Both the position numbers and the translations under genes were made by a program. Below the pieces are notes generated by a model. It had not been told where the DNA came from and did not search any database. It saw nothing but the letters and a program-made list of their open reading frames with translations. A stretch of DNA of 64,000 nucleotides from an uncultured virus (IMG/VR IMGVR_UViG_3300005099_000288) (lineage: Duplodnaviria > Heunggongvirae > Uroviricota > Caudoviricetes), in the IMG/VR virus record IMGVR_UViG_3300005099_000288; one strand, 5' to 3'. Below, in pieces: positions 9,719-59,817 of this stretch. The number at the start of each line of letters is the position of its first letter. Position 1 is the first letter of the stretch.

Positions 9719-9722
9719 CAGA

Positions 9723-10181
9723 TCACCTCTTTTTTTCTTCTTTTATTTTTCGTAAGACTCTGTAGAAATCATCTAAATTAAAAATCTCTTCCAAGGTCTT
9801 ACACGAGACTTTTGTTTGTCTGAATCTCGGAAATTCCCATAATTCGACGGTACGTTCTTTCCGATATACAAACATAGATCCTTCGGATGGACGACAAATA
9901 TAAAAGACATCAGTAAAGGGATAATAATCTCCAACAAAATCACAGTAAGTTGGAGCAAGGTCTCTACAGGATTTACCTCTATTAATAGCATTTATAATTT
10001 TTTTGAGTTTGGATATTTTAAGATATGAAACGAAGGCTGCTCTTTTGTCTGTGAAAATTGCGAAATGTTGCCCGATTTTTTTGTGGGACTCCTCCACTAT
10101 TCTGTCCAAAACCCTTCGTAGATTGTCTCTGACTCCAAAATATTTAGGAACACCACCAAATATTACAACATACCATGTCAT
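9723..10181 (-). CDS. MTWY-family paralog
   Basis: MTWYVVIF...FAIFTDKRAAF...CDF...RPSEG...IFNLDDFY. Confidence 0.85.
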   Translation of the reverse strand: MTWYVVIFGGVPKYFGVRDNLRRVLDRIVEESHKKIGQHFAIFTDKRAAFVSYLKISKLKKIINAINRGKSCRDLAPTYCDFVGDYYPFTDVFYICRPSEGSMFVYRKERTVELWEFPRFRQTKVSCKTLEEIFNLDDFYRVLRKIKEEKKR

Positions 10182-10660
10182 TGAGAGTACCTCTTTTTCA
10201 TTTCTTGTCGTAGAACTCTGTAAAAACCTTCTAAATTAAAAACTTCTTTCAGTCTTTTGTATAGAGTGTCGGATCTACAAAAAGACTTATCTTTAATTCC
10301 AAATCCGTAGATATCAACCATTCCTGAACGCGTATACACGAGAAGACTGCCTTCTCCGGGTCTGTCTAGCCAGACGTTACTCCCAGCATGAAAACGCATT
10401 CCTGTGAAATCCCAATATCCTTTCGGAATATTACGATAAGCTGTATTGATTTTCTCAAAAACCCTTTCTAATTGGCTTCTTTTAATAGAAGACACGAAAA
10501 ATTTTCTCTTATCAGTGAACAAAAGATAGTAAGTCGTATGAGGTTTGTTCATTTCTGCCATTTTTTCTATAATCTTCTTCAGATTTTGGTGTGATTTAAA
10601 AGTTTCAAGTATTTTTCTCTGGGAATCAGCCATAATAACGTACCATACCAAAGTGATCAA
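10178..10660 (-). CDS. MTWY-family paralog
   Basis: VWYVIM...FTDKRKFF...GYWDF...WLDRPGEG...VFNLEGFY. Confidence 0.85.
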   Translation of the reverse strand: MITLVWYVIMADSQRKILETFKSHQNLKKIIEKMAEMNKPHTTYYLLFTDKRKFFVSSIKRSQLERVFEKINTAYRNIPKGYWDFTGMRFHAGSNVWLDRPGEGSLLVYTRSGMVDIYGFGIKDKSFCRSDTLYKRLKEVFNLEGFYRVLRQEMKKRYSQ

Positions 10661-10679
10661 GCCTCCATTTCAGTCTCTA

Positions 10680-11138
10680 CTAAACCTCGAGTCCTTCTTC
10701 ACGTAATACTTTATAAAAATCCTCTAAATTAAAAACTTTTGCCAAGTTTTTGTATAGAGTTTCGGATACGCGAACCTGATTTTCTGCAAGTCCAAATCCA
10801 TACAGAAATACAGATCTCCGAGAAAAATCTACACAGAGAGTCCCTTCTCCAGGTCTGTCAAGCCAAATTTCGTAATCATTACTAAAACAACCACTTATAA
10901 AGTCCCAGTATCCTCTAGGAAGAAATTCGTAGGAACTTCCAATTCTTCTTGCAACTTTCGCCAACTTATCCTTTTTAACAAGAGCCAAAAAAAGCTTTTT
11001 TATGTCAGTAAAGATAAAATAACCCAGAAATCTCGGACACGGAATATCCTCTAAAGTGTCTCTCAGATTCTTTTGTGATTCAAAAATCCTGCGTATATTT
11101 CCGTGAAAGTCAACTTTAATTATATACCACGTCATCAA
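10680..11138 (-). CDS. MTWY-family paralog
   Basis: MTWYII...FTDIKKLF...GYWDF...WLDRPGEG...VFNLEDFY. Confidence 0.85.
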   Translation of the reverse strand: MMTWYIIKVDFHGNIRRIFESQKNLRDTLEDIPCPRFLGYFIFTDIKKLFLALVKKDKLAKVARRIGSSYEFLPRGYWDFISGCFSNDYEIWLDRPGEGTLCVDFSRRSVFLYGFGLAENQVRVSETLYKNLAKVFNLEDFYKVLREEGLEV

Positions 11139-11141
11139 ATT

Positions 11142-11609
11142 TCACCTTCCTCTGTATATTCTATCAAAATCTTCCAGAGTGAAGACTTCACTCAATTTAT
11201 TGTAGAGGTATTCAGAATCCCAGAATTTCAAAGGGAATCCGCGAGAACTGACCTCATAAGATTTCAACCCTATGCGAAGAACTCCTTCTCGTGGATAATA
11301 GAGCCAAATATAACTAGGATCTCCCCATCCGATAAAAGTATAGTTTCCTTCAGGAATTTCTTCTGGCTCTGTCCACGGGGTAAGTCTATCAAACAGGTCC
11401 AGAATGTGAGGATGCCTGAGCAATGTAACAAAGAGTTTTTTCCTGTCCGTGAATATTGCAAAATATGATAACATTGAAGGAGGATAATGTTCTTCGGAGA
11501 ACTCTACTATTTTTTCTACAACATCTTTCAGACTACCTTCAACCTCAAGAATCTCCAAATTAACGGGTTTTATTCGTTTTCTTTTACATATAAGGATATA
11601 CCATGTCAT
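11142..11609 (-). CDS. MTWY-family paralog (start reassigned to MTWYILI at 11609)
   Basis: The family N-terminus begins at 11609; FTDRKKLF...WLYYPREG...VFTLEDF. Confidence 0.8.
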   Translation of the reverse strand: MTWYILICKRKRIKPVNLEILEVEGSLKDVVEKIVEFSEEHYPPSMLSYFAIFTDRKKLFVTLLRHPHILDLFDRLTPWTEPEEIPEGNYTFIGWGDPSYIWLYYPREGVLRIGLKSYEVSSRGFPLKFWDSEYLYNKLSEVFTLEDFDRIYRGR

Positions 11610-11625
11610 AATTCCCGTCCTCGTC

Positions 11626-12120
11626 TTAATATATGATGGATTCTGAGTATAATACTTTATGAAGATCTTCCATATTAAAGACATTTTCGAATTTTTCGTA
11701 GAGGCCTTTGATCCCACTACGAGTCTTCGCTGGAAATCCAAATATGGTAGTATTAGAGGGAATAGACGCAGTATTTATTAAAAGAGCTCCTCTACCTGGT
11801 AGGTCTAGCCAGAAAATCGTGCATGTCGGATCTTCCAGAGAAGCGCAAGACACGAGGAGATCACAAGATTCAGGAGACAAACTAAAATAATCTGGAACTA
11901 TTTTATATTGAATTCTTTTGTATTCTCTAAAAGATTTTTGGATCTTTTCTAAATGCCCTCTAATTACTGAAATAAAAGCTTTCCTTTTATCCTCAAACAA
12001 AAGAAACAATTTTTCACGTGTTTTAATGAGGAGTTCTAAGGTTTCTTTTAGACTTTTATCAATTTCACAAGTATCAAAAATTTTTCCTTCCTGTCCCAAT
12101 ATAATAACATACCATGTCAT
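11626..12120 (-). CDS. MTWY-family paralog
   Basis: MTWYVII...FEDKRKAF...WLDLPGRG...VFNMEDL. Confidence 0.85.
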   Translation of the reverse strand: MTWYVIILGQEGKIFDTCEIDKSLKETLELLIKTREKLFLLFEDKRKAFISVIRGHLEKIQKSFREYKRIQYKIVPDYFSLSPESCDLLVSCASLEDPTCTIFWLDLPGRGALLINTASIPSNTTIFGFPAKTRSGIKGLYEKFENVFNMEDLHKVLYSESIIY

Positions 12121-12599
12121 CAGATCCTTCCTCTTTTTTTGCCTATCTTTCGCTTTATAAAGAGTCCTAATATTTTATAAAAGTCATCCACACAGAAGAC
12201 TTCTCCCAATTTCTCGTATAAGATCTTAAATCGCCGTACTGAGCCCACAGGGATCCCAAATCCGTACACAAAAACTTCGGGAGTTTCAATATCTATTTTC
12301 AAACAACCCTCTTGGGGTTTATCTAGCCAAATAACTTCACGTACAAAATGTGATACGAAAAAATCACACAATCCAGTCGGTAAATCATTATACATAACAC
12401 GAGGTATAGAAAAATCCCGGGCATCCCTCAGATGTCCTCTAATTTCTGAGAGAAAAAGTTTCCTCTTATCATCAAATAGAAGGAAATACTCTTCTTTTTT
12501 CTTCGTGAGAAAATCTAAAACATACTTCAAACTTCCATTGATCTCGAAATATTCGGGAGTTTTCTTCTCTTTACTCAAAGCAATAACACACCACGTCAT
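12120..12599 (-). CDS. MTWY-family paralog
   Basis: MTWCVI...FDDKRKLF...CDFF...WLDKPQEG...VFCVDDFY. Confidence 0.85.
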   Translation of the reverse strand: MTWCVIALSKEKKTPEYFEINGSLKYVLDFLTKKKEEYFLLFDDKRKLFLSEIRGHLRDARDFSIPRVMYNDLPTGLCDFFVSHFVREVIWLDKPQEGCLKIDIETPEVFVYGFGIPVGSVRRFKILYEKLGEVFCVDDFYKILGLFIKRKIGKKRGRI

Positions 12600-12613
12600 C
12601 GAAATCTTCCCCT

Positions 12614-13084
12614 TTACTTTACAGTGGATTCTAATACTTTATAAAAATCCCCCATGTTAAATACATTCCTGAATTCCTCGTAAAGGCCTCTGACTCTACC
12701 AGGATATCTTCCCGAGAATCCGAATATATAATCTTCAGAAGGAACTGACGTAGTATCTATTCTAAGAAATCCTTCACGAGGTAGGTCTAAACAGAAAGTA
12801 TCACAGGATGAAGTACTACAAACCATAAAAATATCACAGCATCTGAGTGGTAATGTTCTATATTCTATAGTGGGGACTGTAAACCTTCCGAAACGTCTTT
12901 GAATATCACTCAGGTATCCCTTGACCATAGAAATAAAAATTTTCCTCTTATCATCGAACAAAAGAAAGTATTCTTCTCCCACTCCCATTAAAAAATCCAG
13001 AACGTCTCTCAAACTTTTGTCAATCTCGAAAGATTCAGAGATCTCCCCCTCCTTGTTTACTACGAGGATATACCACGTCATCAA
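12614..13084 (-). CDS. MTWY-family paralog
   Basis: MTWYILV...FDDKRKIF...LDLPREG...VFNMGDFY. Confidence 0.85.
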   Translation of the reverse strand: MMTWYILVVNKEGEISESFEIDKSLRDVLDFLMGVGEEYFLLFDDKRKIFISMVKGYLSDIQRRFGRFTVPTIEYRTLPLRCCDIFMVCSTSSCDTFCLDLPREGFLRIDTTSVPSEDYIFGFSGRYPGRVRGLYEEFRNVFNMGDFYKVLESTVK

Positions 13085-13599
13085 ATTTTTCCTCGTATTT
13101 TTTCTTCATATCTCCTGACAGGCTCAGATTTGAGGACTTCTTCTAGAGGAACCCCTGTGAATTTGGACATTTTCTTCGCATATTCGAGGGTCATCGGATG
13201 TAACTTCTTTTCTTTCACTATGATCACGGGTACTTTTTTTATTCCGAGCCTCAACGAAACAAGGGCGCGATGTCTTCCCTCGTGCTCAGGCCATCCGTGA
13301 ATCATTCTAGTATAATCCAAAAAAAGTGGCGGTAGTTTCTTCTTGTTTATTATAGCTTCTGTGATATGTTCTATTGAAGACTCAGACCAACCGTGCTCTA
13401 GATCCAGGACTGCAGAAATACCTGGAAATGCAGGATGTGGAACTTTTGACAAAAACTCCTCGGGTCTCATCCATACAAGTCTTGTGTCTTTGTCTGGCCA
13501 CCATTGTAGCATTCGCTTGAGTTCTTCTTCGTCTAGGGGATATTCAAGTCTCTCCTGAATTTCTCTGTAAATTTTCAACACTTCGTCCCATGTAGACAT
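13081..13599 (-). CDS. ParB/Srx-like domain protein
   Basis: LPPLFL...HEGRHRALVSLRLGIKKVPV matches the ParB N-terminal GxHR motif. Confidence 0.7.
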   Translation of the reverse strand: MSTWDEVLKIYREIQERLEYPLDEEELKRMLQWWPDKDTRLVWMRPEEFLSKVPHPAFPGISAVLDLEHGWSESSIEHITEAIINKKKLPPLFLDYTRMIHGWPEHEGRHRALVSLRLGIKKVPVIIVKEKKLHPMTLEYAKKMSKFTGVPLEEVLKSEPVRRYEEKIRGKI

Positions 13600-13606
13600 T
13601 GTAAAA

Positions 13607-13873
13607 CTACGAAAGGACCCCTTCTGCCAGTTTTGTTGCTACTCTATCAACGTAATGTTCATACATTGGATCTGTTCTTGGCATTCCGAACAATTTTTCA
13701 ACCATTCCTCTTGCTGTATTTTGTACCCAGTCTGTAGCTTTTACAACTTCCACTGCTTTTTCGAATGTTATGCCTTCTGGTAATTTTGCCTTCGGAGGAT
13801 CCAGAAGCAAATATGCCAATATTCCAGCAGTTCCGCAGACTACGACAAGATTTTTCAGATTCATGTGAATCAC
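13607..13873 (-). CDS. small membrane-anchored protein
   Basis: N-terminal hydrophobic helix; TATA and GGTGA upstream. Confidence 0.6.
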   Translation of the reverse strand: MIHMNLKNLVVVCGTAGILAYLLLDPPKAKLPEGITFEKAVEVVKATDWVQNTARGMVEKLFGMPRTDPMYEHYVDRVATKLAEGVLS

Positions 13874-13933
13874 CAGATTAAAATTTGCACAACTTCACAT
13901 TTAAAATTTTCTCTGAGTTATACCCTTAAACTG

Positions 13934-14195
13934 TTAGGCCTGTAAGGGTTTTCGAAAAATTATAGAGAAAAGCTCAAACTACTTAGTTTTTACTAGAAGA
14001 AGCTTATATTGAGCTTTTTCTAAATAAAGAGAAATTGACCTCTATTCAGAAAAATAAACCCAGAATAGTCTTATTTTATATTCCGTGTAGACTAAACCCC
14101 CTTTTGATCAAGATTTTTCTACTGTAGATCTAGGTGTACGGAAAGAAAATCATTAACGGAAAGGGGGTTTGATATTCTGAGTTTAAAAAATGACA
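13934..14195 (+). repeat. dispersed composite palindromic element, copy B
   Basis: TAGGCC start, four AGCT boxes, then the long inverted repeat AAACCCCCTTT...TGTAGATCTA...AAAGGGGGTTT. Confidence 0.85.
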
Positions 14196-14654
14196 CTAAA
14201 GTTTATCAGCAAGAATTTTCTCAGGGAATCTGATTTTTCCAGCTTCTTCCAAGACAATACCTTTCAGTTTCTCGAGAGGTATCACATACATGGAATCGGA
14301 GTGTTCTGTAAAAACAACATTTCTTCGCGTTAAAACAAGGAACCAATAACATCCGTCCTTAAATCGTACCAGCATGTAGGGAATCTTCACATTAGGTCCT
14401 AAAAATGCAAGAGCTCTCAGAAGGATTTTACTGTCTATGACCCTGTGTGGATTGAAAAGGGAATTTATTTCGTCTTGATTTCTAGAAATGACGTCTAAAA
14501 ATAATGTTTTCTTGTCCGAGTATATAAAATAACAAGATTTCTCACTGTTTGAATATTTGAAATGTGTTATTTTTGCAAGGTAGTATAAATCATTACAGAC
14601 TCTCCATATCTTATTTTCTGGGACTTCTAGCATATATAATTTTAACGGGTTCAT
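14196..14654 (-). CDS. distant MTWY-family member
   Basis: LYMLEVP...YFIYSDKKTLFLD; most similar to 56864..57358. Confidence 0.55.
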   Translation of the reverse strand: MNPLKLYMLEVPENKIWRVCNDLYYLAKITHFKYSNSEKSCYFIYSDKKTLFLDVISRNQDEINSLFNPHRVIDSKILLRALAFLGPNVKIPYMLVRFKDGCYWFLVLTRRNVVFTEHSDSMYVIPLEKLKGIVLEEAGKIRFPEKILADKL

Positions 14655-15100
14655 TTTCTCCTTTCCTGCAGAATTTTCTCAAGATCCCTGACACTAAAGA
14701 TTCTTTTCAGATCCTCGTAAAAATTACTTTCGTCATAAGAATCTAAGAATTCGTATAATCTAACTTTATGAAGCTGTCTATCTATTCGAAAGGCCCCTCT
14801 ACCCGGGTAGAATATCCAGAAAATATTCGTCCTATGGATGTAATCTCCGATAAAATCCCAGTACCCTGCAGGTATATCACGAAGAGTGGAACGTTTGGCT
14901 ATTCCCTCTATAATGTCTTTAGTCCAACTCTTTTTTATCAGTAGGATGAAGAAAGCTCTTCTATCCGTAAATATAGCAAAGTACCTAGAGGATTTCAGTC
15001 TTGTAGCAATTTCATCTAAAATATCTTTAAAACTTCCTTTGATCCAAAAATAATCCTGGATTTTCCCCTCTCTATCGAATATAATTACATACCAGGTCAT
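14651..15100 (-). CDS. MTWY-family paralog
   Basis: MTWYVIIF...YFAIFTDRRAFF...GYWDF...PGRG. Confidence 0.85.
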   Translation of the reverse strand: MTWYVIIFDREGKIQDYFWIKGSFKDILDEIATRLKSSRYFAIFTDRRAFFILLIKKSWTKDIIEGIAKRSTLRDIPAGYWDFIGDYIHRTNIFWIFYPGRGAFRIDRQLHKVRLYEFLDSYDESNFYEDLKRIFSVRDLEKILQERRK

Positions 15101-15708: not shown

Positions 15709-15954
15709 CTAGGACTTCAGTGCTTTCAGGATCTCCTCGATAAGTGCAACTATTTTCTCGGCCTCTTCTAACAATTCTTCCTCAGTGACTTTGTCGTCTT
15801 CCTTTATTTTTTTATAGTGTTCAATTGCTTCGGTTAATTTATCTTTTATCTGTTGCAATTCTGTAGGAGAAATCCTAGAACTGACAAATCTCCACACTGC
15901 TACTAAAGTTGTTATTACTCCACCAATAAACCCTTCGATAGCTCCTATATCCAT
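15709..15954 (-). CDS. small protein with N-terminal TM helix and acidic coiled coil
   Basis: Hydrophobic N-terminus; TATA and GGTGA upstream. Confidence 0.6.
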   Translation of the reverse strand: MDIGAIEGFIGGVITTLVAVWRFVSSRISPTELQQIKDKLTEAIEHYKKIKEDDKVTEEELLEEAEKIVALIEEILKALKS

Positions 15955-15998
15955 ATCAAATCACCATTTAAAAATTTCAGTCTCAACAAATAAAAACT

Positions 15999-16316
15999 TT
16001 ATTCCTGTCTGCAGTTAACTCCGAGGTATTTCATTATGAAATCGTCGTCGTGGAATAGTGAATCTTCATCCAGTGCCTGTTCAATCTTTGCATCTCTTAT
16101 AATTTTGCAAATTATGTTCACTCTTCTTTTTCTCGAGGATCTCTTATTTTTCTTACGTTTCGTGTGAAAATTTGTCCTACATTTTGAAGAGCAAAAAATG
16201 TTCTGTCCTGTTAAAAGTTTACCCAATTGCCACCTACTAGGTCTAAATTTCCTACCACAAAAAGAGCACTCTGTTTCAACATTTTTATAGGGATTTTCTT
16301 CCCAAAAGAAGAACAA
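15999..16316 (-). CDS. zinc-finger (TRASH/MYM-like) protein
   Basis: CSFCG...FCSSKC followed by a basic tract. Confidence 0.55.
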   Translation of the reverse strand: MFFFWEENPYKNVETECSFCGRKFRPSRWQLGKLLTGQNIFCSSKCRTNFHTKRKKNKRSSRKRRVNIICKIIRDAKIEQALDEDSLFHDDDFIMKYLGVNCRQE

Positions 16317-16458
16317 AACTGCACTTTTTCTTTTTTTACTTTCTTCTTCGAATAAGTGCAGATGCCTTCAAACTCTTATATCTCCGTACCGATTTACTGA
16401 AAGGGAAGTACTTAAATATCCTCTTGGATTTTCTAGAATTTTTCCATGGCCGATCCAT

Positions 16459-16659
16459 TTACTGTACTCTCTCACTTCCTCCGTTTGCTTCATAGCGCAT
16501 CGATTCTACAGCCTCTTCGGCCATCAAAGCAAAACACATAAGACCTGTTACCCATCCTATCACAAAGCAGGCAAAACCCTGCAAGTCACCTATTATATAC
16601 GACAATCCATCACCTGCAAATGTTATGATATAAAACAAATGAAACTTAAGTCTACTCAT
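16459..16659 (-). CDS. small membrane protein
   Basis: Two hydrophobic segments; GAGGTG RBS. Confidence 0.5.
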   Translation of the reverse strand: MSRLKFHLFYIITFAGDGLSYIIGDLQGFACFVIGWVTGLMCFALMAEEAVESMRYEANGGSERVQ

Positions 16660-17027
16660 TCATTAACACCTCTATCTCAATATTTCTCATTTTAATTTTA
16701 TTTTTAATAAAAGCTTTCTTATAAAAGCTTTCTTCTACTTCCCCTAATTCATCCACGTTCTATTGAGGATGATTGAGTAAAGTTTAAATATCTGGAATCT
16801 TTCAAATTTAACAGACTGATGATATGAGGTTACGTTGTTAGTTTTACATTCTTCTTTTGACTTTTTTTATCTTTTTCTCTTTTATTTAATGTATTTCATA
16901 CATCAAGGAAATTAAATTTTTATTTTAATTAAACAACAAGGTCCTTGTTATATAGGACAGAGACTTAATTTCCAGAAAGAAAAATAAACCTAAAATAAAC
17001 TTATTTTTCCGAAATATATTCTTCTTT

Positions 17028-17137
17028 CTGGCAGATTTATAAATTGCCAGTAAATTGAGAGAATACTAAAATTAATACTAAATTAATCTTATTTTTGAAA
17101 TTTAAAAGTATATTTCTGGCAAATTTGCATATTGCCA
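17028..17137. promoter_or_regulatory. pair of palindromic operator-like sites
   Basis: CTGGCAGATTTATAAATTGCCAG (17028-17050) and CTGGCAAATTTGCATATTGCCA (17116-17137). Confidence 0.55.
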
Positions 17138-17142
17138 AAAAC

Positions 17143-17334
17143 CTAAGATCTCAGTAATCCTGCGAGTAATGTCAAAATTACCATGATCATCAACCATCGA
17201 TTCCACTTAAGCTCTTTTGTTAAGGCTCTCAACTGGCAGTTTGTATCCTTGAGACACAGAAATACGAATTGTCTAAACTCTTTGTCGCCCATATTACGGA
17301 CATCGTCTAAAGAGATTTTCTCGAAATCCACCAT
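17143..17334 (-). CDS. small protein with C-terminal TM helix
   Basis: Coiled segment followed by WLMIMVILTLLAGLL. Confidence 0.6.
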   Translation of the reverse strand: MVDFEKISLDDVRNMGDKEFRQFVFLCLKDTNCQLRALTKELKWNRWLMIMVILTLLAGLLRS

Positions 17335-17379: not shown

Positions 17380-18435
17380 TTATTCTTTTCTTTCAACACA
17401 GAGGATATGATCTCCAAATTCCGTTGGTTTGTAGAATAAAGTCACATCTCTATTAGAAAACGGCATTAAATTTACTGAATAAGTATCGACTTCAGTACCA
17501 TCTTCAGTTAATCTAAGATCGAACAGATCAGACGAAAACCCTGCATTCTTGACATTAACTTCTACGCGACATACTTCTCCTATAACGACTTGTTCAGGCC
17601 ATTTGATACTCATAACAATTTCTGGAGGAAGTTTTATCGAAATACTAGGTTTATACAGGAGATATCCTGAAGCACCACACATCTCGAATGTCGAAATCCC
17701 ATCACTACTAAGAATATTATAGCAATCTTCGGTTGAAGTATCATAAGAACACGAGAATCCCTTAAGTAATTCCTTTCCAGTAGACACTAGATCTGATCTA
17801 TATCCCCAAGTACAATATGGAGGAACCAGAAATCCGAAAAGTAGCGGACCGTATAATACATTTTCGCCTTTATAAATAGTTATTCCTGTAGAGTTACAAC
17901 CCTCACGACACTCAGAAGTACCTACACATCCAAAACTTGGTATTCTTAAAGAATACCATTCTCCGAGAGTTATATTATATGATACCGTCTCTTTCATGTT
18001 ATATTTTGCACTCCAATTAAGAGTAGTTTCAATTGAAACCGGGTCAGTATCAGGTACTTCGATGTGATCCCATGTAACCCAAATATGTCTAGAGTCGCTA
18101 CTACCTGGATTCCCTGTATACTGAGCATTACCACAGTAAGGATCTCCTACAGGATGATATTTTTCAGGAATAATATAGGAGACGTCGAATGAAACATTTA
18201 TCGTATTACTCTTTATTGTCAAACCTACAATGCCATTATAGTACAAGAGTCCAATAAATTTGTCTCCTTTCCATACTTCAAATTGTACAGTCCTTTTTCC
18301 TGTATCATAATCAGTTCTGATTGGTACTCTTAGTTTTATTGTATAATCTGAGATAGGAACATTCCAACTCCAATAACTATAATATGTATCAGGTCCTACA
18401 TATGCGATTTCAGGACAAGGATTGTTAAGTATCAT
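17380..18435 (-). CDS. beta-rich surface protein with C-terminal CARDB/Ig-like domain lacking its last strand (putative fibre tip)
   Basis: VEVNVKNAG...YKPTEFGDHILCVE ends right after the F strand. Confidence 0.6.
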   Translation of the reverse strand: MILNNPCPEIAYVGPDTYYSYWSWNVPISDYTIKLRVPIRTDYDTGKRTVQFEVWKGDKFIGLLYYNGIVGLTIKSNTINVSFDVSYIIPEKYHPVGDPYCGNAQYTGNPGSSDSRHIWVTWDHIEVPDTDPVSIETTLNWSAKYNMKETVSYNITLGEWYSLRIPSFGCVGTSECREGCNSTGITIYKGENVLYGPLLFGFLVPPYCTWGYRSDLVSTGKELLKGFSCSYDTSTEDCYNILSSDGISTFEMCGASGYLLYKPSISIKLPPEIVMSIKWPEQVVIGEVCRVEVNVKNAGFSSDLFDLRLTEDGTEVDTYSVNLMPFSNRDVTLFYKPTEFGDHILCVERKE

Positions 18436-18438
18436 CGT

Positions 18439-19065
18439 TCAGCTGTAACTTACAGAAACACAAATTTCTTTACTACCAGTTCCACAATAGTATGCATCCG
18501 TGTGGAGATACCCCGTTTTTGTTATAGTTTCATCCGGATCTAGATAGAACGAATACTCATTGAAGGTAGTTCCGTTACAAGTAAACCTCAATTCTACGTA
18601 CGCTGAAGCTCCTCCTGTATTCTGTAATGTACAATAAACGTAGACGGTTTCTCCTAACATCGCAGTATCTTTATTCAGGTGAAAATCGGTTATTATTACT
18701 TCAGGTTCTGATGGAGCAGTTACTTTAACACTTCTCGAATCGTAACAATCAGTCCCAGAATAACTCGGACATCCATGTTCTCCATACGCAACAAGGGCTG
18801 CTATTTTCACTGTATAATATCCTTCAGATGCAGTAGACTTACATCGATAATCTGCCCATGCTAAATAACTATCTGCAGGTATGCACACTGTACTCTTAGC
18901 TATGAACTCAAATGCGTCTGAATCTGCGTATGGTGAAAGATAATAGTTTTTTGCATTATATATCCATAGTGACAGTCGAATCTCGTCTCCTGGTTCTATA
19001 TTTACGTCTGGATAATAACCGCCTTTCGTTTTGTTATATATTTTGAGCTCTCCCGTGTAACACAT
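18439..19065 (-). CDS. two-Ig-domain surface protein (CARDB-like) with incomplete C-terminal domain
   Basis: GETVYVYCTLQNTGG...LDPDETIT...KEICVSVSYS at the end. Confidence 0.6.
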   Translation of the reverse strand: MCYTGELKIYNKTKGGYYPDVNIEPGDEIRLSLWIYNAKNYYLSPYADSDAFEFIAKSTVCIPADSYLAWADYRCKSTASEGYYTVKIAALVAYGEHGCPSYSGTDCYDSRSVKVTAPSEPEVIITDFHLNKDTAMLGETVYVYCTLQNTGGASAYVELRFTCNGTTFNEYSFYLDPDETITKTGYLHTDAYYCGTGSKEICVSVSYS

Positions 19066-19095
19066 ATCGCATCCTCCTGTATTCCCCCAAATTTA

Positions 19096-19452
19096 TTACG
19101 ATTTCTTCTCACCTCTGAGTAATAACAAAGCTCCGACTCCACCCAGTCCTGCCAACGTTAACAAGACTTTCTTGGAAACTGGTTTAGAGGGGACCTCAGA
19201 TTCTAATGTGACAGACACCGTCTCGGTCTCTCCTTCTTCGACTGTTATTGTACCAGTTTCTTCCTTATATCCTTCTAAGGTTAATTTCCACGTATGTTCT
19301 CCTGGATCTACTGCAATTGTTGCAGGAGTTACCATTCCTGTATCGTTTCCATCAATAAAAATCGCAGCTCCTTCAGGATCTGAGGTAAACTCAATGTAGC
19401 TTTTAACTTCTTGCGTTACGATCAGAGTCGCACATTTCTTCATCTCTCCCAT
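19096..19452 (-). CDS. PEGA-domain membrane-anchored protein
   Basis: TSDPEGAAIFIDG...TPATI...PGEHTWKLTLEGY is a PEGA motif; C-terminal TM helix. Confidence 0.8.
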   Translation of the reverse strand: MGEMKKCATLIVTQEVKSYIEFTSDPEGAAIFIDGNDTGMVTPATIAVDPGEHTWKLTLEGYKEETGTITVEEGETETVSVTLESEVPSKPVSKKVLLTLAGLGGVGALLLLRGEKKS

Positions 19453-19466
19453 CGAGATCCACCTTT

Positions 19467-20174
19467 CTAATAGTGTACATTATCTACGACAAAACATATT
19501 TCATAAGTTCCTTCCTCTGATGGAGCTGTTAACGACAAAGAATCACTTATTTGATCTACTGTAGTCAGTTCTGTCGAGCTCTCTGGAATCTCAGTTCCAT
19601 CTATTTCCCAGTGTCCTTCAACAGTGATGGGAATCGCAGCATCTGAAGGTAATTCATTAGTCAATGTCACTTCGGCATTAAATGATCCTCCAATGTTCAC
19701 AGTATCAGGATCTATTCGGACATTTAAGCTGTACTCGTAGTCGTATATCAAGACTTCACCTACTAGATCTCGAGTTGGAAAACTGAAATTGGTTCCGTCG
19801 CACAATTGCCCTGTGTCAGTCCAAGCATGAACTCTTCTGTCAAGTCCACATAAATCTTGATCTACTGTAAATGTGCTAGAGTAGACATATGCCATATCAA
19901 GAGGATCTATACAATCAGACCATGCATAACCTGCGTTTAGCACAGAATTCCCTTCGGCGTCTCTTATTTCAAAATGAACTCCAACCTTTACTTCGGTACT
20001 GGAGTCATTCTCTGCTGTCACTCTGATTCGATATGTCTTTCCTCTGTACAAGTTCGTTGTCGCCTCTCCTGTATCTACATCGACAACTTCGATATTTCTA
20101 ATATAAATCTGTGGTGCAACTACTGTTAAAGAAACACATTGGCTACCCTGTAAAACAGGTCCCATTTTTAACAT
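19467..20174 (-). CDS. tandem Ig-fold surface protein with N-terminal extra strand
   Basis: N-terminal SQCVSLTV; two beta-sandwich repeats; ends TAPSEEGTYEICFVVDNVHY. Confidence 0.6.
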   Translation of the reverse strand: MLKMGPVLQGSQCVSLTVVAPQIYIRNIEVVDVDTGEATTNLYRGKTYRIRVTAENDSSTEVKVGVHFEIRDAEGNSVLNAGYAWSDCIDPLDMAYVYSSTFTVDQDLCGLDRRVHAWTDTGQLCDGTNFSFPTRDLVGEVLIYDYEYSLNVRIDPDTVNIGGSFNAEVTLTNELPSDAAIPITVEGHWEIDGTEIPESSTELTTVDQISDSLSLTAPSEEGTYEICFVVDNVHY

Positions 20175-20779: not shown

Positions 20780-21679
20780 TTACACCTCAACCTCAAAAAT
20801 TTTGCCATCCGAACCTGCTTGTCCATTTCCACAACCAGAAGTACCTCCATTTCCCCCTGAAACATCAATGTTCCCCGTTCCACTCTTCGTTATATAGTTC
20901 AACACTACCAAACCACCAGCACCCCCACCACCACCAGCTCTCTTTTGATAAGTTCCATTCGTCCCGTTTTCTCCATTTTCGCCCTTTGCTTCAATAGTTC
21001 CATTGTTTACTAGGTTCTTGGCAAAAATATAAATTGCACCTCCACCAGCTCCACCATCTCCCGGTAATCCAATAACTTGACACGTGCCACTCTCACCAAC
21101 GCACTCGCAATATCCATCACCACCACCGCCACCCGCACCAGCATTAGGAAAGTTACACCATTCACAATAACCAACGTGATTTTTTAAAGCACGCAGCTTC
21201 TCATCATTTCCAGCACCACCAGCTCCAGGATTCGAGGAACTGCAATAGCTGTAATGTCCACCAGAGCCTCCAGCTATTAAGCCATCTTCACCAGAGAGAC
21301 CACTTTGACAAATACTACAATAACAACCGCAAGAACCACTTCCAACACCACCACCACTCCCTCCTTTCCCTGTCATAGATATCTTTCCATTGTTGGTGAG
21401 AGTATTTTTCACATAAATTATCAATACTTTTTTATCTGAAGTTACGGTGACGCCAGAGTCTATTGTGAGATTATTGTAGTACATAATTTTGTTTATAGTG
21501 CAGTTAGCAGATATGGTAACGTCTCCGTCTGAACCGTCTCCAAACAATCCACCTGTAGATTTAAGTTCGCTGGCGTCTTTACCATCTACCTTGTCAGCAT
21601 CATCAGCTTTTCCATCTAAATCTAAGTCTAACATAGCGGGGTAAACAGTTTTAGTCGTTCCTGCTCTTTTGATTTTCAT
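20780..21679 (-). CDS. glycine-rich fibre/receptor-binding-like protein
   Basis: FGDGSDGDV and GGAGGGAIYI...NNGTIEAKGENG glycine-rich repeats; N-terminal DLDGKADDADKVDG. Confidence 0.7.
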   Translation of the reverse strand: MKIKRAGTTKTVYPAMLDLDLDGKADDADKVDGKDASELKSTGGLFGDGSDGDVTISANCTINKIMYYNNLTIDSGVTVTSDKKVLIIYVKNTLTNNGKISMTGKGGSGGGVGSGSCGCYCSICQSGLSGEDGLIAGGSGGHYSYCSSSNPGAGGAGNDEKLRALKNHVGYCEWCNFPNAGAGGGGGDGYCECVGESGTCQVIGLPGDGGAGGGAIYIFAKNLVNNGTIEAKGENGENGTNGTYQKRAGGGGGAGGLVVLNYITKSGTGNIDVSGGNGGTSGCGNGQAGSDGKIFEVEV

Positions 21680-21688
21680 TTTATCACC

Positions 21689-22396
21689 TCACTCATAAAT
21701 GATTATCACCTCTCCCTTAAATTTTCCTGATTGTGCTTCAGAAGTAGAGCCATCAACTGCAACAAGTCTAACTGCTCTGATAGATGATATATCAGTATCT
21801 GTTAAATTGAATTTTAAACTGTTATCTCGCCAAACTTTTTGGACTCCATATTCCCAATAAAACTCAATCAAGTAGTAGGTATTATAACTCAAATCAACAC
21901 TTTCAGCTGCAATTTGTGTTGCAGAGCCTGATATGTTCTTCAAAAAACGCAAATCTCCTGCCGATTGACCAATAGTTAGATATATTCCATAAAAGTCTGG
22001 AGGATTTTTCCACGTAGAAGCGTCTGCATTACAGAATTGTACAATAACATCTTGTGCATCTACGCTGTTTATATACACTTTTGCGTAAACCCTGCTCGCA
22101 TCAACAGGTAAATTCCAATACATCCACGATGTTCCAGTTGCACTTGATGTTCCACCTATAATAGTCAATTCTTCACTATCACTTGAAACATTACCAGCCT
22201 GAGCCTCTACTATATCACCTAACAAAGCATTCATGTTAGATGTTCTGAGTAACAGCTTTGGCTCGTTAAATAAGTCAAGGACTTCTTGTCTTATTCCTAT
22301 CAACTCGCCAGACCTTTTACCGTCTAATGTGTATGACTGTCCTATCCTTTTGGTAAAGTCTGTTCCTGCGATTGTGTGTTTGACCATCTTAATCAC
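21689..22396 (-). CDS. beta-sandwich (lectin-like) virion protein, paralog of 22662..23369
   Basis: Shares SWMYWNLP, NPPD and AESVDLS-NTYYL with 22662..23369, including nucleotide-level identity. Confidence 0.65.
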   Translation of the reverse strand: MIKMVKHTIAGTDFTKRIGQSYTLDGKRSGELIGIRQEVLDLFNEPKLLLRTSNMNALLGDIVEAQAGNVSSDSEELTIIGGTSSATGTSWMYWNLPVDASRVYAKVYINSVDAQDVIVQFCNADASTWKNPPDFYGIYLTIGQSAGDLRFLKNISGSATQIAAESVDLSYNTYYLIEFYWEYGVQKVWRDNSLKFNLTDTDISSIRAVRLVAVDGSTSEAQSGKFKGEVIIIYE

Positions 22397-22645
22397 TTAT
22401 GCTATTCCTAATTCTTTTGCAATTTCTTCTGGTGATTTATCAGCTTTAACTTCGACTTCAAACTCATCTCCTAAATCTTTTACCACTTGCACCGTAAAGA
22501 AGGTTCTGTCTTTGTATTTCCCTGATTTAAAGACAAAGTCTCGGATTTCTTTTAATATCGGCATAACGCTGTCCACGTCTGGTCTTATAGGATTTTCTTC
22601 ACTTCCATCTCCAACTTTTGAACATCTAACTTTCTCTACATACAT
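22397..22645 (-). CDS. hypothetical protein
   Basis: 82-aa ORF with GAGGTGA RBS; GDGSEENPIRP. Confidence 0.6.
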   Translation of the reverse strand: MYVEKVRCSKVGDGSEENPIRPDVDSVMPILKEIRDFVFKSGKYKDRTFFTVQVVKDLGDEFEVEVKADKSPEEIAKELGIA

Positions 22646-22661
22646 AGGCTTATCACCTCAT

Positions 22662-23369
22662 CTATTCATAAATGATTACTATATTGCCTTTAAACTTACT
22701 TAATAGTGCTTGGCTGGTTGAAATATCATATACATATAGTCTAACAGCTAATATAGATGATATGTCTGTATCAGAAATTGTAAATTTCAAAGTATTATCC
22801 CTCCATACTTTGTATGTTCCATACTTCCAATAAAATTCGACAAGGTAATATGTATTCGCTGACAAATCAACAGATTCTATAGCTTGCTGAGTTTGAGTTC
22901 CAGATATATATTTACCACATAAGAAATCTTGTGCACTATTAGAAAGATTAAACCTTACAAAATAATAATCAGGTGGATTAATCTCTGTAGAACCATCCGC
23001 ATTACATAAATGTATATCTGTTCTATAGTTAACAGAATATACTGGATTTACTCTTAAAATTAAATAGACTTTAGTTGCACTTGTTGGTAAATTCCAATAC
23101 ATCCATGATTTTCCAGCAGCAGAATCACTTCCTCCTATAATAGTCAACTCCTGTGAATTAGAACTTATATTCCCTGCTACAGCCTCAACCAAGTCAGCAC
23201 TGTTTAGCACCTCATTCATGCTTGAAGTTGCTATTAAAACTTTTGGGTCGGAGAAATTTTGCAAAACTTCTTGCCTAACGCCAGCTAACCGTGATGCTTT
23301 CCAGTCTATTACGTTGTCTTCGTCTGTGTCATATACATTCTTCAACATCCACTTTGGGTGATACGTCAT
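22662..23369 (-). CDS. beta-sandwich virion protein with MTYHPK adaptor N-terminus
   Basis: Paralog of 21689..22396; its N-terminus is shared with 24196..24822. Confidence 0.65.
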   Translation of the reverse strand: MTYHPKWMLKNVYDTDEDNVIDWKASRLAGVRQEVLQNFSDPKVLIATSSMNEVLNSADLVEAVAGNISSNSQELTIIGGSDSAAGKSWMYWNLPTSATKVYLILRVNPVYSVNYRTDIHLCNADGSTEINPPDYYFVRFNLSNSAQDFLCGKYISGTQTQQAIESVDLSANTYYLVEFYWKYGTYKVWRDNTLKFTISDTDISSILAVRLYVYDISTSQALLSKFKGNIVIIYE

Positions 23370-23764
23370 CTCTTCAACACCACATACCCTAATGCTAATA
23401 AGGGAATTGCTACTAATAGTTTTGAAGGTATTTGAGCTGGTGTAGGTGTTGTTGGAGATGTTGGAGTTATTTTTGTTAAATCTACAGATGCTTTCATCCA
23501 GTTTGGTGTTTTGTTTGGTGGTAGTGTTATTTTAGTATCATTTATTACGACGTATTTTTCAGTGTCAACGTTTCTGTAGTAAATATCAATTCTATCTGCG
23601 TCTATGTTTGGAAAGTATTCTCTAGGATTGCTGGAACTCCACGTTTCTCTGCTTTCGTCATAAGGTTTTATGGCTTTTAGGTACTCATCACCTTTATAAA
23701 ATAGAACTGAAACCGTGCACAAATCTCCATAGTCATCTTTAGAGTTAAAAGACATTTTCAGCAT
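23366..23764 (-). CDS. membrane-anchored protein, paralog of 23770..24174
   Basis: DIYYRNV-TEKYV-INDTKITLPPN is shared; Pro/Thr linker and C-terminal TM. Confidence 0.7.
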   Translation of the reverse strand: MLKMSFNSKDDYGDLCTVSVLFYKGDEYLKAIKPYDESRETWSSSNPREYFPNIDADRIDIYYRNVDTEKYVVINDTKITLPPNKTPNWMKASVDLTKITPTSPTTPTPAQIPSKLLVAIPLLALGYVVLKR

Positions 23765-23769
23765 TTATA

Positions 23770-24174
23770 TCACCTCTTCACAACTATATAACCTAAAGCT
23801 AATAAAGGAACTGTCGCCATCAAAATTTTCCCAGCCTTCTGAGATACAGAAGGTGGTGTTGGAGTAATCTCTGCTAAATCTACCGACACACATGCCCAAT
23901 CGTCAGGAATTTCGTTCGGAGGTAGAGTTATCTTTGTATCGTTGATTATAACATATTTCTCAGTCTCCACGTTTCTATAGTAAATATCGACATGATCCGC
24001 ATCTATATTCAACTGATACTCCTTTGGATTATCTCTGTTAAAAATGTCACCTCTTTCTTCGTCATAAGGACTTATTGTCATTAGGTAATTGTCGTCTTTG
24101 TAAAATATTGCGAGAACTGTACACACATCTTCTGTGCTACTGTCTGTCCCAAAGTATACTCTTCTGACTAACAC
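23770..24174 (-). CDS. membrane-anchored protein, paralog of 23366..23764
   Basis: Same shared motif; ends VPLLALGYIVVKR. Confidence 0.7.
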   Translation of the reverse strand: MLVRRVYFGTDSSTEDVCTVLAIFYKDDNYLMTISPYDEERGDIFNRDNPKEYQLNIDADHVDIYYRNVETEKYVIINDTKITLPPNEIPDDWACVSVDLAEITPTPPSVSQKAGKILMATVPLLALGYIVVKR

Positions 24175-24195
24175 TTCGATACCTCCAAATTTTGA

Positions 24196-24822
24196 TTACA
24201 TTATATACCAATTCGTTCCATCACTAATCAAAGTGTATGACTGATACTGAGTGTCAATTGTTAGAGATGAAGCTCCGTCGATTGTCTCTGAACCACTTGG
24301 ACTGATAGTTACTGTATTTGTAGAGCTGTCAGTCTTTTTAACGCCGACCTTACCACCACTTGAAGGTGATGGCAAGGTTATGGTAACTGCACCACCTGAA
24401 GCGTCAACTAAAACGAACTCGTTGTTGCTTGCTGTATAGTCTGAAGATTTTGATACAACAGACCAGCTTGCCATTAATTCAGACGCTGTATATCCACCAA
24501 CAGTTGCTGCGTCAATACCTAAGGCATCATGAGTTGCTTTATTATGGTCTGTCAGTAGGTTTGCACAGGTGTTTGGTAGGTCATCAGCTCCTAATACACT
24601 GCACCCAGATGATAAGGTTTTATTCTTTAAAGTTTGGCTTTCGTCAGTGAACACTATTGAACCAGTCCCAAGTGCGTCGTGTGTTGCTCTGTCGTGGTCT
24701 GTCAAAACAGTTGCACAGGTATTTGGAATATCAACGCCGTCTACCATATCTGCATCGTCTACTTTACCGTCTTCGTTTGTGTCATATTCTGTTTTTAACA
24801 TTCTTTTTGGGTGGTATGTCAT
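24196..24822 (-). CDS. fibre-like protein (start reassigned to MTYHPKRM)
   Basis: GAGGTGA RBS; internal repeat PNTCA--LTDH--ATHDALG x2; C-terminal VDASGGAVTITLP domain. Confidence 0.7.
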   Translation of the reverse strand: MTYHPKRMLKTEYDTNEDGKVDDADMVDGVDIPNTCATVLTDHDRATHDALGTGSIVFTDESQTLKNKTLSSGCSVLGADDLPNTCANLLTDHNKATHDALGIDAATVGGYTASELMASWSVVSKSSDYTASNNEFVLVDASGGAVTITLPSPSSGGKVGVKKTDSSTNTVTISPSGSETIDGASSLTIDTQYQSYTLISDGTNWYIM

Positions 24823-24848
24823 TTCTTCACCTCTTATTTTTTTACATT

Positions 24849-25832
24849 TTATAATATATACCAATTACTACCATCTGAGTATAAATAATATGACTCATAT
24901 TGAGTTGAAATTGTTAGCGAAGATAAACCATCTATTTTTTCTGTTGCGTTTGGATTAATAGTTACTGTGTTTGTAGAACTATCTATCTTTTTAACAGCAA
25001 CTCTTCCTGACGACACAGGTGCTGGTAAAGTTATTGTTACTGCTCCTCCAGACGCATCTACAAGAACAAACTCATTATTTGAAGCGTTGTAATTTCCTGT
25101 TTTTGTTATTACATTAAATTTAGGCATATAGAGAGTGTCTAAAATTTCTTTTGTGACTGGAGTTGAAAGTCTGCTTCTAATATCACCCTGATAATATACC
25201 CTAACCGTTGTTGAAGAACCCCCCGATTCATATCTTGAATATAACTTCAAAACAAGTCTGCTTCCAGAAGCCATAACATAATCATCTGCAAGTATCAAAG
25301 AAATTATGACATCCCTTCTTGAATCTACCTTGTCACTGACCATTGACTCATCGATTAGAACCTCACTGTTATCGGATTTTCTTTCATATAATCTGTAAAA
25401 TAATCTTACATCTATATGACCACTTATTACCTCTGCTTGACAATGAAATTCATAGACACCGAGTTTTAGAGGAATATCACTCGTAGGAGTTATCCATGAA
25501 GCAATTTCATAATCTCCAGCACTATTCTTTGTTATTTCAACATAAGCCTCTGAAAGTTCTGGAACAGTAAGACTCATTGATTTGTATGCTGGAACATCTC
25601 CATCTGCTGCATCTAACAAGAAATAGTTTATACCAAGTCCAACGACAGATGTATCAACATAAATCTTTCTCGCCACGTCGTAAGGCTCTGTTGGTTCTCC
25701 AAGACCTTTGATAACATAATCTCCCCAATCCTTATTAGCATCAACAACTAATTTACTTAATCTCGGTGATTTAGCAAGTTTGTAACTTATAGGGTCAAAA
25801 GGCATAACAATCACCTCATAAGTATTGTCCAA
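24849..25832 (-). CDS. fibre-like protein sharing its C-terminal domain with 24196..24822
   Basis: YNASNNEFVLVDASGGAVTITLP...SDGSNWYI. Confidence 0.7.
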   Translation of the reverse strand: MDNTYEVIVMPFDPISYKLAKSPRLSKLVVDANKDWGDYVIKGLGEPTEPYDVARKIYVDTSVVGLGINYFLLDAADGDVPAYKSMSLTVPELSEAYVEITKNSAGDYEIASWITPTSDIPLKLGVYEFHCQAEVISGHIDVRLFYRLYERKSDNSEVLIDESMVSDKVDSRRDVIISLILADDYVMASGSRLVLKLYSRYESGGSSTTVRVYYQGDIRSRLSTPVTKEILDTLYMPKFNVITKTGNYNASNNEFVLVDASGGAVTITLPAPVSSGRVAVKKIDSSTNTVTINPNATEKIDGLSSLTISTQYESYYLYSDGSNWYIL

Positions 25833-26543: not shown

Positions 26544-26666
26544 TCAATCCCTCGCCATGACTAATCCTACTACTGAGACTCCGACTATTCCAACCATTAA
26601 TGGTATCATCTTTGGAATTTTCTCTTTCGCTTCTTCTACACGTAAATACCAAGATACTGTATCCAT
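26544..26666 (-). CDS. 40-aa membrane-anchored peptide with N-terminal beta-strand (not in ORF track)
   Basis: MDTVSWYLRVEEAKEKIPKMIPLMVGIVGVSVVGLVMARD; TAATG overlap with the upstream gene. Confidence 0.65.
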   Translation of the reverse strand: MDTVSWYLRVEEAKEKIPKMIPLMVGIVGVSVVGLVMARD

Positions 26667-26983
26667 TATGGTTCCACCGTCAATTTTAACTTATATATTC
26701 CAGGTTCCTCGAAGGTACTTGTAGATATTATCAGATCACTCACTTCACCTACATCTAGCTCTACCTCGCCTGTATCGAGGACTTTAATCTCAGTATCTTC
26801 TTCGTCTACTATGGAAACTTTCCAAGTGAAAATCCCTGGTGCGTCACCAGCATTTTGAATCTTGAACATACACAATTCTACCTCTCCCAAAGTATCAGAC
26901 AAAGTTGTCGGATGAAAATAAACAATATCTCCCCATGGCAGACCCATATAAGCTACCTCCATCTCCCAAGATCTAGTATCCAT
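26666..26983 (-). CDS. single CARDB/Ig-fold protein with N-terminal extra strand
   Basis: MDTRSWEMEV...FKIQNAG...ELDVGE...EPGIYKLKLTVEP. Confidence 0.65.
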   Translation of the reverse strand: MDTRSWEMEVAYMGLPWGDIVYFHPTTLSDTLGEVELCMFKIQNAGDAPGIFTWKVSIVDEEDTEIKVLDTGEVELDVGEVSDLIISTSTFEEPGIYKLKLTVEP

Positions 26984-30226: not shown

Positions 30227-30229
30227 GTA

Positions 30230-31132: not shown

Positions 31133-31135
31133 TCT

Positions 31136-31681: not shown

Positions 31682-31746
31682 TTAAAAATTTGCAATACTA
31701 CTATTTAAAAATTTTTCCTTGTAACTTTAGAACTTTAACTAACACC

Positions 31747-31923: not shown

Positions 31924-31953
31924 AACACTTTTGATCTATTGTCCGTAACTCCT

Positions 31954-35533: not shown

Positions 35534-35538
35534 TCATT

Positions 35539-59808: not shown

Positions 59809-59817
59809 GGTGAGAAA

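Follow-up and report, generated by a model that had tools for sequence, protein, structure and literature searches.

In a 64,000-nucleotide stretch of DNA from an uncultured virus (IMG/VR record IMGVR_UViG_3300005099_000288), referred to here as the window, four minus-strand open reading frames (ORFs) at positions 17380-20174 appear to encode an array of CARDB-type immunoglobulin (Ig)-like domains in pieces, with the cuts between strands F and G and not between domains. The ORFs are transcribed in the order ORF4, ORF3, ORF2, ORF1. The last domains of ORF1, ORF2 and ORF4 are of the CARDB-type Ig fold and without strand G, whereas ORF3 and ORF4 would start with the missing strand, bearing a cysteine. 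We propose donor-strand complementation as the means by which the separate pieces are joined, followed by locking through a disulfide, with ORF3 as the base, ORF4 as the link, and ORF2 or ORF1 as the heads, an assembly to which we give a little less than an even chance.

ORF4 (19467-20174, minus strand, 235 amino acids, stop TAG) consists of a free N-terminal segment, a complete Ig domain (D1) and a second domain without strand G (D2). ORF3 (19096-19452, minus strand, 118 amino acids, ending in TAA TAA) combines an N-terminal cysteine segment with a PEGA domain and a C-terminal hydrophobic anchor. ORF2 (18439-19065, minus strand, 208 amino acids, stop TGA) has a cysteine-rich N-terminal domain, and ORF1 (17380-18435, minus strand, 351 amino acids, stop TAA) a cysteine-rich N-terminal part, followed in both proteins by a C-terminal domain without strand G. 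Residues 1-262 of ORF1 gave no usable match in an ESM Atlas search.

The incomplete domains occupy residues 147-235 of ORF4 (D2; 19470-19736, minus strand), residues 118-208 of ORF2 (18442-18714, minus strand) and residues 262-351 of ORF1 (17383-17652, minus strand). The first two comprise strands A-F only, with C227 and C202 in strand F, respectively, and the CARDB-like domain of ORF1, with C346, also ends after strand F. D2 is a putative acceptor, and in all three proteins the six-stranded last domain would present an open edge beside strand F. The C-terminal stretches of about 90 residues can be aligned with each other (BLASTP of the ORF2 against the ORF1 domain, E 2e-7), and their last strand contains an invariant glycine and an invariant cysteine, with C346, C202 and C227 in the same column. 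The common end of three truncated paralogous domains may reflect one event rather than three.

Membership of the CARDB family was examined with several profiles. Pfam CARDB (PF07705, gathering score 22.7 bits, 101 positions) matched ORF1 with 20.7 bits up to profile position 77 and ORF2 with 15.5 bits up to position 66, both under the cut-off, and did not match ORF4 at E values up to 1. The ORF4 homologue on a metagenome contig (L001, described below) exceeded the cut-off with 24.2 bits, matching profile positions 7-85. A search of 1.84 billion representative proteins with a three-domain profile returned 1679 proteins at E values up to 1e-3, and the 150 that were listed were examined. Most of these are long and contain several matched stretches apiece, adding up to 592 domain instances. 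The end of the profile was reached in 223 instances, 219 of them cellular. Only the four ORF2-family proteins had no residue past the profile end, whereas the other 219 instances had at least 19. All cellular instances continued as a turn and a strand G, even where the domain was the last of its protein. The same profile also found the solved CARDB domain 2kl6_A (PF1109; E 0.0019), which was aligned through residue 85 of 114, leaving 29 residues beyond the match.

We then compared the window, translated in six frames, with a complete-domain profile of 106 positions derived from 78 complete homologous instances. Four matches were obtained, namely ORF1, ORF2, ORF4 and the product of a further gene at 26666-26983, and all four stopped at profile positions 83-86, which is where each protein ends. 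The fourth domain without strand G, in a protein of 105 amino acids (minus strand), is CARDB-like (E 7e-6, profile positions 28-85) and has no cysteine in its last strand. This protein carries an extra N-terminal segment ahead of strand A, a pilin-like layout in miniature, and is possibly a further member of the same assembly principle.

AlphaFold2 models gave the same picture. In the monomer model of ORF4 (mean predicted local distance difference test score, pLDDT, 90.1), D1 was complete, with strands within residues 23-144 and a long strand G at residues 129-144, whereas D2 contained only the strands 148-155, 164-173, 183-191, 201-205, 208-216 and 226-230. The C-terminal domain of ORF2 (pLDDT 95-98) was modelled with six strands, ending with that at residues 201-207; the N-terminal domain of the protein was modelled poorly. 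Residues 116-208 of the ORF2 model were compared by VIA with the solved CARDB domains 3idu_B (Z 10.2, root-mean-square deviation 2.6, 87 aligned residues) and 2kl6 (Z 9.8), but since other Ig-like domains score equally, these model-based scores establish the fold class only. Fold searches with the ORF4 model likewise recovered the generic fold only, in the form of tandem Ig-like barrels of transglutaminases and RbmA in the PDB, and of assorted Ig-repeat phage proteins in BFVD. Taken by profile ends and by the six-strand models, none of the domains in question is a complete seven-strand CARDB sandwich. The original prediction, made from the sequence alone, had stated that ORF1, ORF2 and ORF4 end after strand F with a cysteine in that strand. 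The motifs it named do lie at these ends, and Pfam, the complete-domain profile, the solved structure and AlphaFold2 agree with it.

An incomplete domain need not be an acceptor. According to the main rival explanation, the six-stranded domains could be stable alone, in which case the four ORFs would be separate accessory or receptor-binding proteins of the tail-fibre-module kind, their N-termini would be flexible docking peptides, and their cysteines would serve other disulfides or bind metal. The pLDDT values of 91-98 with which the six-stranded domains were modelled as monomers are in line with this explanation, as is the truncated domain at 26666-26983 with its cysteine-free last strand. 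ORF1 and ORF2 are, moreover, generally rich in cysteine (11 and 9 residues, respectively), the 8 invariant cysteines of ORF2 are even in number and could pair internally, and genes nearby encode tail-fibre-like C-terminal domains. On the other hand, the retention of strand G in 219 of 219 cellular instances, protein-terminal domains included, speaks against a domain that does well without it. Together with the N-terminal features and the conservation pattern described next, this makes the stand-alone explanation unlikely in our judgment, if still one to be reckoned with.

The N-termini of ORF4 and ORF3 provide candidates for the missing strand. ORF4 starts with MLKMGPVLQGSQCVSLTVVAP and ORF3 with MGEMKKCATLIVT, and the segment C-x-[ST]-L-[TI]-V is common to both. 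In ORF4 the putative donor strand corresponds to residues 10-21 (GSQCVSLTVVAP; 20112-20147, minus strand) and includes C13. In ORF3 it corresponds to residues 5-13 (KKCATLIVT; 19414-19440, minus strand), outside the PEGA match, and includes C7, the only cysteine of the protein. The presence of this sole cysteine in the N-terminal segment argues against six-stranded domains that function alone. The motif C-x-[ST]-[LIV]-[TIV]-V occurred only in ORF3 and ORF4 among 42,981 six-frame residues, a count that has to be read in light of the derivation of the motif from these two sequences.

In order to describe the boundary between domains, a junction profile was made from 60 junctions of tandem arrays, each spanning the end of strand F, strand G, the linker, and the start of the next domain. 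Residues 14-63 of ORF4 matched this profile with 8.8 bits. VSLTVVAP fell on strand G and the linker, and the residues that follow it aligned to strands A and B of D1. Because its N-terminus aligns as strand G plus linker, ORF4 looks, at the level of sequence, like a stretch of a tandem array that is one strand out of register, starting with G and ending with F. This alignment also counts against a docking peptide in front of self-sufficient domains.

The cysteines have a precedent within the domain family. Among the 219 complete cellular instances, 10 had a cysteine in the last 16 profile residues (strand F) and 8 had one in the next 22 residues (start of strand G). All 8 belonged to the 10 with a cysteine in strand F, and it is for this reason that we regard the F-G cysteine pair, as judged by sequence, as native to this family. 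In P0066, P0098 and P0107 the second cysteine immediately follows an NN motif and is located where strand G starts. The viral F cysteine occupies the same profile column as in P0107 and lies two columns before those of P0066 and P0098. The viral proteins would carry the two halves of such a pair on separate chains.

Relatives of the four genes are few. No homologue of ORF4 or ORF1, other than the proteins themselves, was present in a collection of 5.8 billion proteins; scans of viral contigs found no relative, and when genome contigs were scanned with ORF3, the matches were limited to PEGA domains of two bacterial metagenome-assembled genomes. ORF2 has three database homologues (72-77% identical, 206-207 amino acids). 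A further relative is L001, a metagenome contig of 2448 bases, on which ORF4-, ORF3-, ORF2- and ORF1-like genes follow each other in the same order, with their stop positions and cysteines unchanged. Identity to the window proteins is 44% for ORF4, 52% for ORF3 and 80% for ORF2; the diverged ORF1-like protein is 33% identical over 66 residues, and its N-terminus is not conserved. The five ORF2-family sequences (ORF2, the three homologues and the L001 copy) share one end position in the alignment, and C2 and C202 of ORF2 are invariant, as part of the 8 invariant cysteines.

In the comparison of ORF4 with its L001 counterpart, the termini were more conserved than the body of the protein. Invariant residues at the start were Q12, C13, L16, T17, V18, V19 and P21, and at the end G222, T223, E225, C227, F228, V229, D231, V233, H234 and Y235. 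This conservation of the ends, where a donor strand and an acceptor edge are proposed, argues against domains acting on their own. In ORF3, residues C7, T9, L10 and V12 of the segment were invariant, and both versions of the protein contain exactly one cysteine. An orphan strand with a cysteine at the start of both ORF3 and ORF4 had been part of the original prediction; the conservation of the segments in L001 and the alignment of the ORF4 segment as strand G bear this out, while the ORF3 segment matched no profile of strand G.

All four proteins contain a cysteine within their first 13 residues, and for the three acceptors (C7 in ORF1, C2 in ORF2, C13 in ORF4) this raises the question of closure in cis. 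In such an arrangement the N-terminal cysteine segment of ORF1, ORF2 and ORF4 would fill the last domain of the same chain and form an internal disulfide, resembling a circular permutation, and no chain of proteins would result. For ORF2 this idea agrees with the invariance of both C2 and C202 and with the even number of invariant cysteines, and it could still hold there, the N-terminal domain having been modelled too poorly to judge. In ORF4, in contrast, residues 1-22 take part in neither a strand nor a bridge in the confident monomer model, where pLDDT is 48 over residues 1-10 and 73 over residues 11-20. ORF3 carries the segment yet has no acceptor domain of its own, and the N-terminus of the ORF1-like protein on L001 is not maintained. 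We therefore consider cis closure improbable. The strandless N-terminus of ORF4 also bears on the outcome that had been named beforehand as speaking against donor-strand complementation, namely complete monomeric sandwiches with the N-terminal strand folded back. No such structure was observed, D2 having no strand G either, and the donor-strand model came through this check with added support from sequence. On the whole, we regard the model as partly supported.

The gene layout was inspected for signs that the ORFs are fragments of longer genes, either expressed jointly, by read-through of the ORF2 TGA into ORF1 and by a -1 frameshift from ORF4 into ORF3, or separated by recent breakage or assembly errors. 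The start of ORF1 is located 3 bases past the stop of ORF2 and in frame with it, so that only the TGA and one codon lie between the two, and the frame of ORF3 is offset by -1 from that of ORF4 both in the window and in L001. However, each of the four genes has its own start, and a GGTG/GGAGG box precedes the starts of ORF2, ORF3 and ORF4. ORF3, with its GGTGG box and its TAA TAA end, has a frame that is open for only 9 codons (window) or 8 codons (L001) upstream of the ATG, and no slippery heptamer was seen in the window sequence. The ORF1-like gene of L001 is out of frame with the ORF2-like gene, so that conserved read-through is disfavoured, and the ORF2-like gene of a second metagenome contig (L002) is followed by an unrelated small gene. 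The boundaries are unchanged at 44-80% identity, and the anchor gene ORF3 stands in the middle of the gene row and not at its end. Because TGA (38), TAA (33) and TAG (16) all terminate ORFs among the 87 of at least 100 amino acids in the window, there is, by this sequence criterion, no sign of an altered genetic code, which also goes against a TGA that is read through. Gene fragments are thus a very improbable explanation. As a principal explanation, an ORF2-TGA-ORF1 read-through product was considered separately and rejected, because no Pfam match extends past profile position 77 and because the frame is not kept in L001.

ORF3 differs from the other three proteins in its domain content. Residues 23-85 matched PEGA (Pfam PF08308, gathering score 20.8) with 58 bits over profile positions 7-69 of 71, and the L001 homologue matched it with 47.8 bits. 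Near the C-terminus, residues V96-L112 (19117-19167, minus strand) form a hydrophobic segment of 17 residues with a hydropathy maximum of 1.85, followed by RGEKKS, and this hydrophobic end is conserved in kind in L001. An NCBIfam scan placed neither a C-terminal sorting-signal model nor any other family over its cut-off. ORF3 had been predicted to carry the only transmembrane anchor. This is correct among the four ORFs but does not hold for the wider module, since small proteins with C-terminal hydrophobic ends are encoded nearby, at 23366-23764 and 23770-24174 (minus strand) and at 31136-31681. The first two are paralogues of 132 and 134 amino acids, with the hydrophobic end ..PLLALGY..KR and an N-terminal cysteine segment, and without any family match; from their sequences they are possible further anchors.

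Taken together, these features can be arranged into a mechanism. The N-terminal strand of a donor would insert into the last domain of an acceptor, non-covalently as in pili, and the contact would then be locked by a disulfide between the donor cysteine and the cysteine of strand F. In the simplest chain, ORF3 would be the base and act as donor only, ORF4 would act as both donor and acceptor and might be repeated, and ORF2 or ORF1 would complete the chain. The latter two would be acceptors with variable cysteine-rich heads and hence alternative tips. Binding, the choice of partners, the disulfide and the order of the pieces all belong to the proposal, as does the identity of the product as a fibre of the virion. 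In its full form, the proposal would have a virus-like element of a hyperthermophilic archaeon build a heteromeric fibre without chaperone or usher from CARDB pieces cut between F and G, which would be joined in the cytoplasm or on the particle; the native F-G disulfide would have been turned into an intermolecular lock, and the heads, ORF1, ORF2 and perhaps others, would be exchangeable as gene cassettes on a common stalk. This full form we put forward tentatively, at clearly less than even confidence.

Several observations weigh against the assembly proposed here. The ORF3 segment was recognised as strand G by none of the profiles. Chimeras of each acceptor domain with the first 24 residues of 82 proteins gained no more than about 3 bits against the complete-domain profile, and the N-termini of ORF3 and ORF4 ranked 5th to 76th without standing out, in a test rendered powerless by the weak G part of the profile. 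Compared with three of the eight cellular examples that have cysteines in both F and G, the viral F cysteine is located two profile columns earlier; the register of the two cysteines cannot be fixed from sequence, on the donor side because linker lengths differ. Since AlphaFold2 is fully confident in the isolated six-stranded domains, these may be stable without a partner. The family is tiny and too small for covariation analysis, being represented beyond the window by two metagenome contigs and three database proteins. Contig L002 (1899 bases) carries its ORF2-like gene (804-1424, 77% identical) among unrelated small genes, with no ORF3 or ORF4 neighbours on these 1.9 kb. This arrangement fits a movable cassette, yet it shows that adjacency is not required.

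Topology and particle identity also belong on this side of the balance. None of ORF1-4 has a signal peptide or a hydrophobic N-terminus, and ORF3 as a tail anchor would keep the chain on the cytoplasmic side. Either the hydrophobic segment of ORF3 is buried in the particle or acts at entry, or else assembly is intracellular. No capsid, portal or terminase family was recognised in the window, which leaves out about 14.6 kb of the 78.6-kb contig, and the only tail-type genes found in it are those with tail-fibre-type C-terminal domains at 24196-25832.

The remaining gene content of the window fits an element that is likely a virus, and the product of the four genes may be a fibre of its virion. 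The window encodes a family-B DNA polymerase, a RadA/Rad51-like recombinase, NrdD with its activase, thymidylate synthase, dCMP deaminase, an MCM-like ATPase and an integrase. The IVYWREL fraction of 24 enzymes was 0.446, which by an empirical relation presumably corresponds to growth near 80 °C. This value and the anaerobic ribonucleotide reductase together suggest that the host is an anaerobic hyperthermophile. In a hyperthermophile, covalent locking and cytoplasmic disulfides are plausible. Among the sequencing runs listed as containing the sequence, none was of RNA. One DNA run labelled as hydrothermal vent metagenome contained two contigs of identical sequence, 151 and 164 bases long and at a depth of 2-2.5, which shows occurrence only.

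Upstream of the four ORFs, several fibre-like proteins are encoded at 20780-25832 (minus strand), and these genes look like a set of alternative fibres. The last 85 or so residues of the two proteins at 24196-25832 match phrog_20556, and tblastn found domains of this type in unannotated proteins of Halorubrum tailed viruses, in a Thermocrinis virus region annotated as 'T7 tail fiber protein', and in a Gordonia phage tail spike. These two proteins (24196-24864 and 24849-25832) have in common the C-terminal domain that is also found in the Halorubrum tailed viruses. The product of 24196-24864 further shares an N-terminal motif (MTYHPK.MLK..YDT) with that of 22662-23369, and an aspartate-rich D-A-D-x-V-D-G stretch with that of 20780-21679. 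The genes at 21689-22396 and 22662-23369 encode paralogues of 235 amino acids.

Directly downstream of ORF1, within 15709-17334 (minus strand), lie three genes for small proteins with hydrophobic segments, at 17143-17334, 16459-16659 and 15709-15954, of which the first has a C-terminal hydrophobic end and a weak XhlA match. They are possible lysis or membrane proteins. Farther along, 9233-15100 (minus strand) is occupied by a tandem row of at least 8 paralogous genes whose products, of about 150-165 amino acids and without a PHROG match, start with MTWYV(I/V)... Glycosyltransferases (GT2, GT1/GT4) and two NAD-dependent sugar epimerases/dehydratases are encoded at 29561-37457 (minus strand) and 58789-60768 (plus strand), and may act in glycosylation of the particle or of the host's surface. 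The ends of the window, 1-1209 and 61732-63999 (plus strand), encode a MoxR-like AAA ATPase, a DUF2201_N metallopeptidase-like protein and a VWA/CoxE-like protein.

If the proposed assembly is correct, it would show how exchangeable gene cassettes can give rise to a fibre, how an intradomain disulfide can be converted into an intermolecular lock, and how assemblies of this kind can be stabilised near 80 °C. The register-shifted boundary, in which strand G opens the protein and strand F closes it, is also a simple sequence signature by which the same principle could be sought in other proteins, viral and cellular. Bacterial and archaeal surface filaments that depend on secretion systems are known to use donor-strand complementation. 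To our knowledge, this mechanism has not been reported before as the means of joining separately encoded Ig-domain fibre proteins of a virus, and a search of open-access full text that combined strand donation with viruses or phages returned nothing beyond cellular filaments and strand exchange in contractile sheaths.

A close parallel in design is offered by the chaperone-usher pili. In type 1 and P pili, Ig-like subunits lack strand G, and the N-terminal extension of the next subunit supplies it; tip adhesins consist of a receptor domain and an acceptor domain without a donor strand, whereas adaptor subunits have both donor strand and acceptor domain. The proteins described here share the Ig-like subunit without strand G, and the logic of tip and adaptor resembles that of ORF2/ORF1, ORF4 and ORF3. 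They differ from the pili in that signal peptides are absent and that a Pfam scan of 52 window proteins found no chaperone or usher family. They also differ in the CARDB type of the domain, in the cysteine on both donor and acceptor, in the PEGA base with its own hydrophobic anchor, and in their origin from a virus-like element whose host is probably a hyperthermophile.

Among archaea, threads and bundling or Tafi pili are reported to be filaments held together by strand donation, with additional covalent isopeptide bonds in threads and with Tafi pili modelled as tip, adapter and major pilin (bioRxiv 10.1101/2022.04.26.489512; PMC12337348; 10.64898/2026.09.13.751334). The filaments reported there are cellular and their subunits are secreted via Sec or Tat signal peptides, in contrast to ORF1-4, which have no signal peptide. 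The systems differ further in that we propose a disulfide as the covalent lock, and in that the pieces described here are heterologous multi-domain proteins and not one repeated pilin. None of these archaeal pilins was among the listed Foldseek or VIA matches; no direct comparison was made, and a relation is not excluded by this.

The endospore appendages (Enas) of Bacillus belong to bacterial spores and not to a virus, and their subunit fold and helical packing differ from those of the proteins considered here. ORF3 scored 15.7 bits against Pfam Enas (PF13157; E 0.015), below the gathering score of 22. The likeness lies in the linkage, since Enas are reported to have N-terminal connectors that are disulfide-linked to neighbouring subunits (bioRxiv 10.1101/2020.08.21.260141), and fibres with N-terminal segments tied to their neighbours in this way are also what we propose. 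Strand donation in virus-derived machines is found in the sheath of contractile tails and injection systems, whose subunits are linked by donated N- and C-terminal strands (PMC13266070). As described there, this is sheet augmentation in a helical mesh, without cysteines, and not the completion of incomplete Ig domains in a linear heteromeric fibre.

With regard to the domains themselves, close counterparts are cellular surface proteins with CARDB repeats and a C-terminal membrane anchor, such as P0104, P0114 and P0038. They contain domains of the same family and end in a hydrophobic segment followed by a basic tail, and some of the cellular CARDB-repeat proteins have the F-G cysteine pair. P0114 and P0038 start with a hydrophobic, signal-peptide-like N-terminus that has no counterpart in the window proteins, while P0104 appears to be cut at its N-terminus. 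The cellular proteins are, however, single chains made of complete domains, whereas the array encoded in the window appears to be split over four genes at the boundaries between strands F and G.

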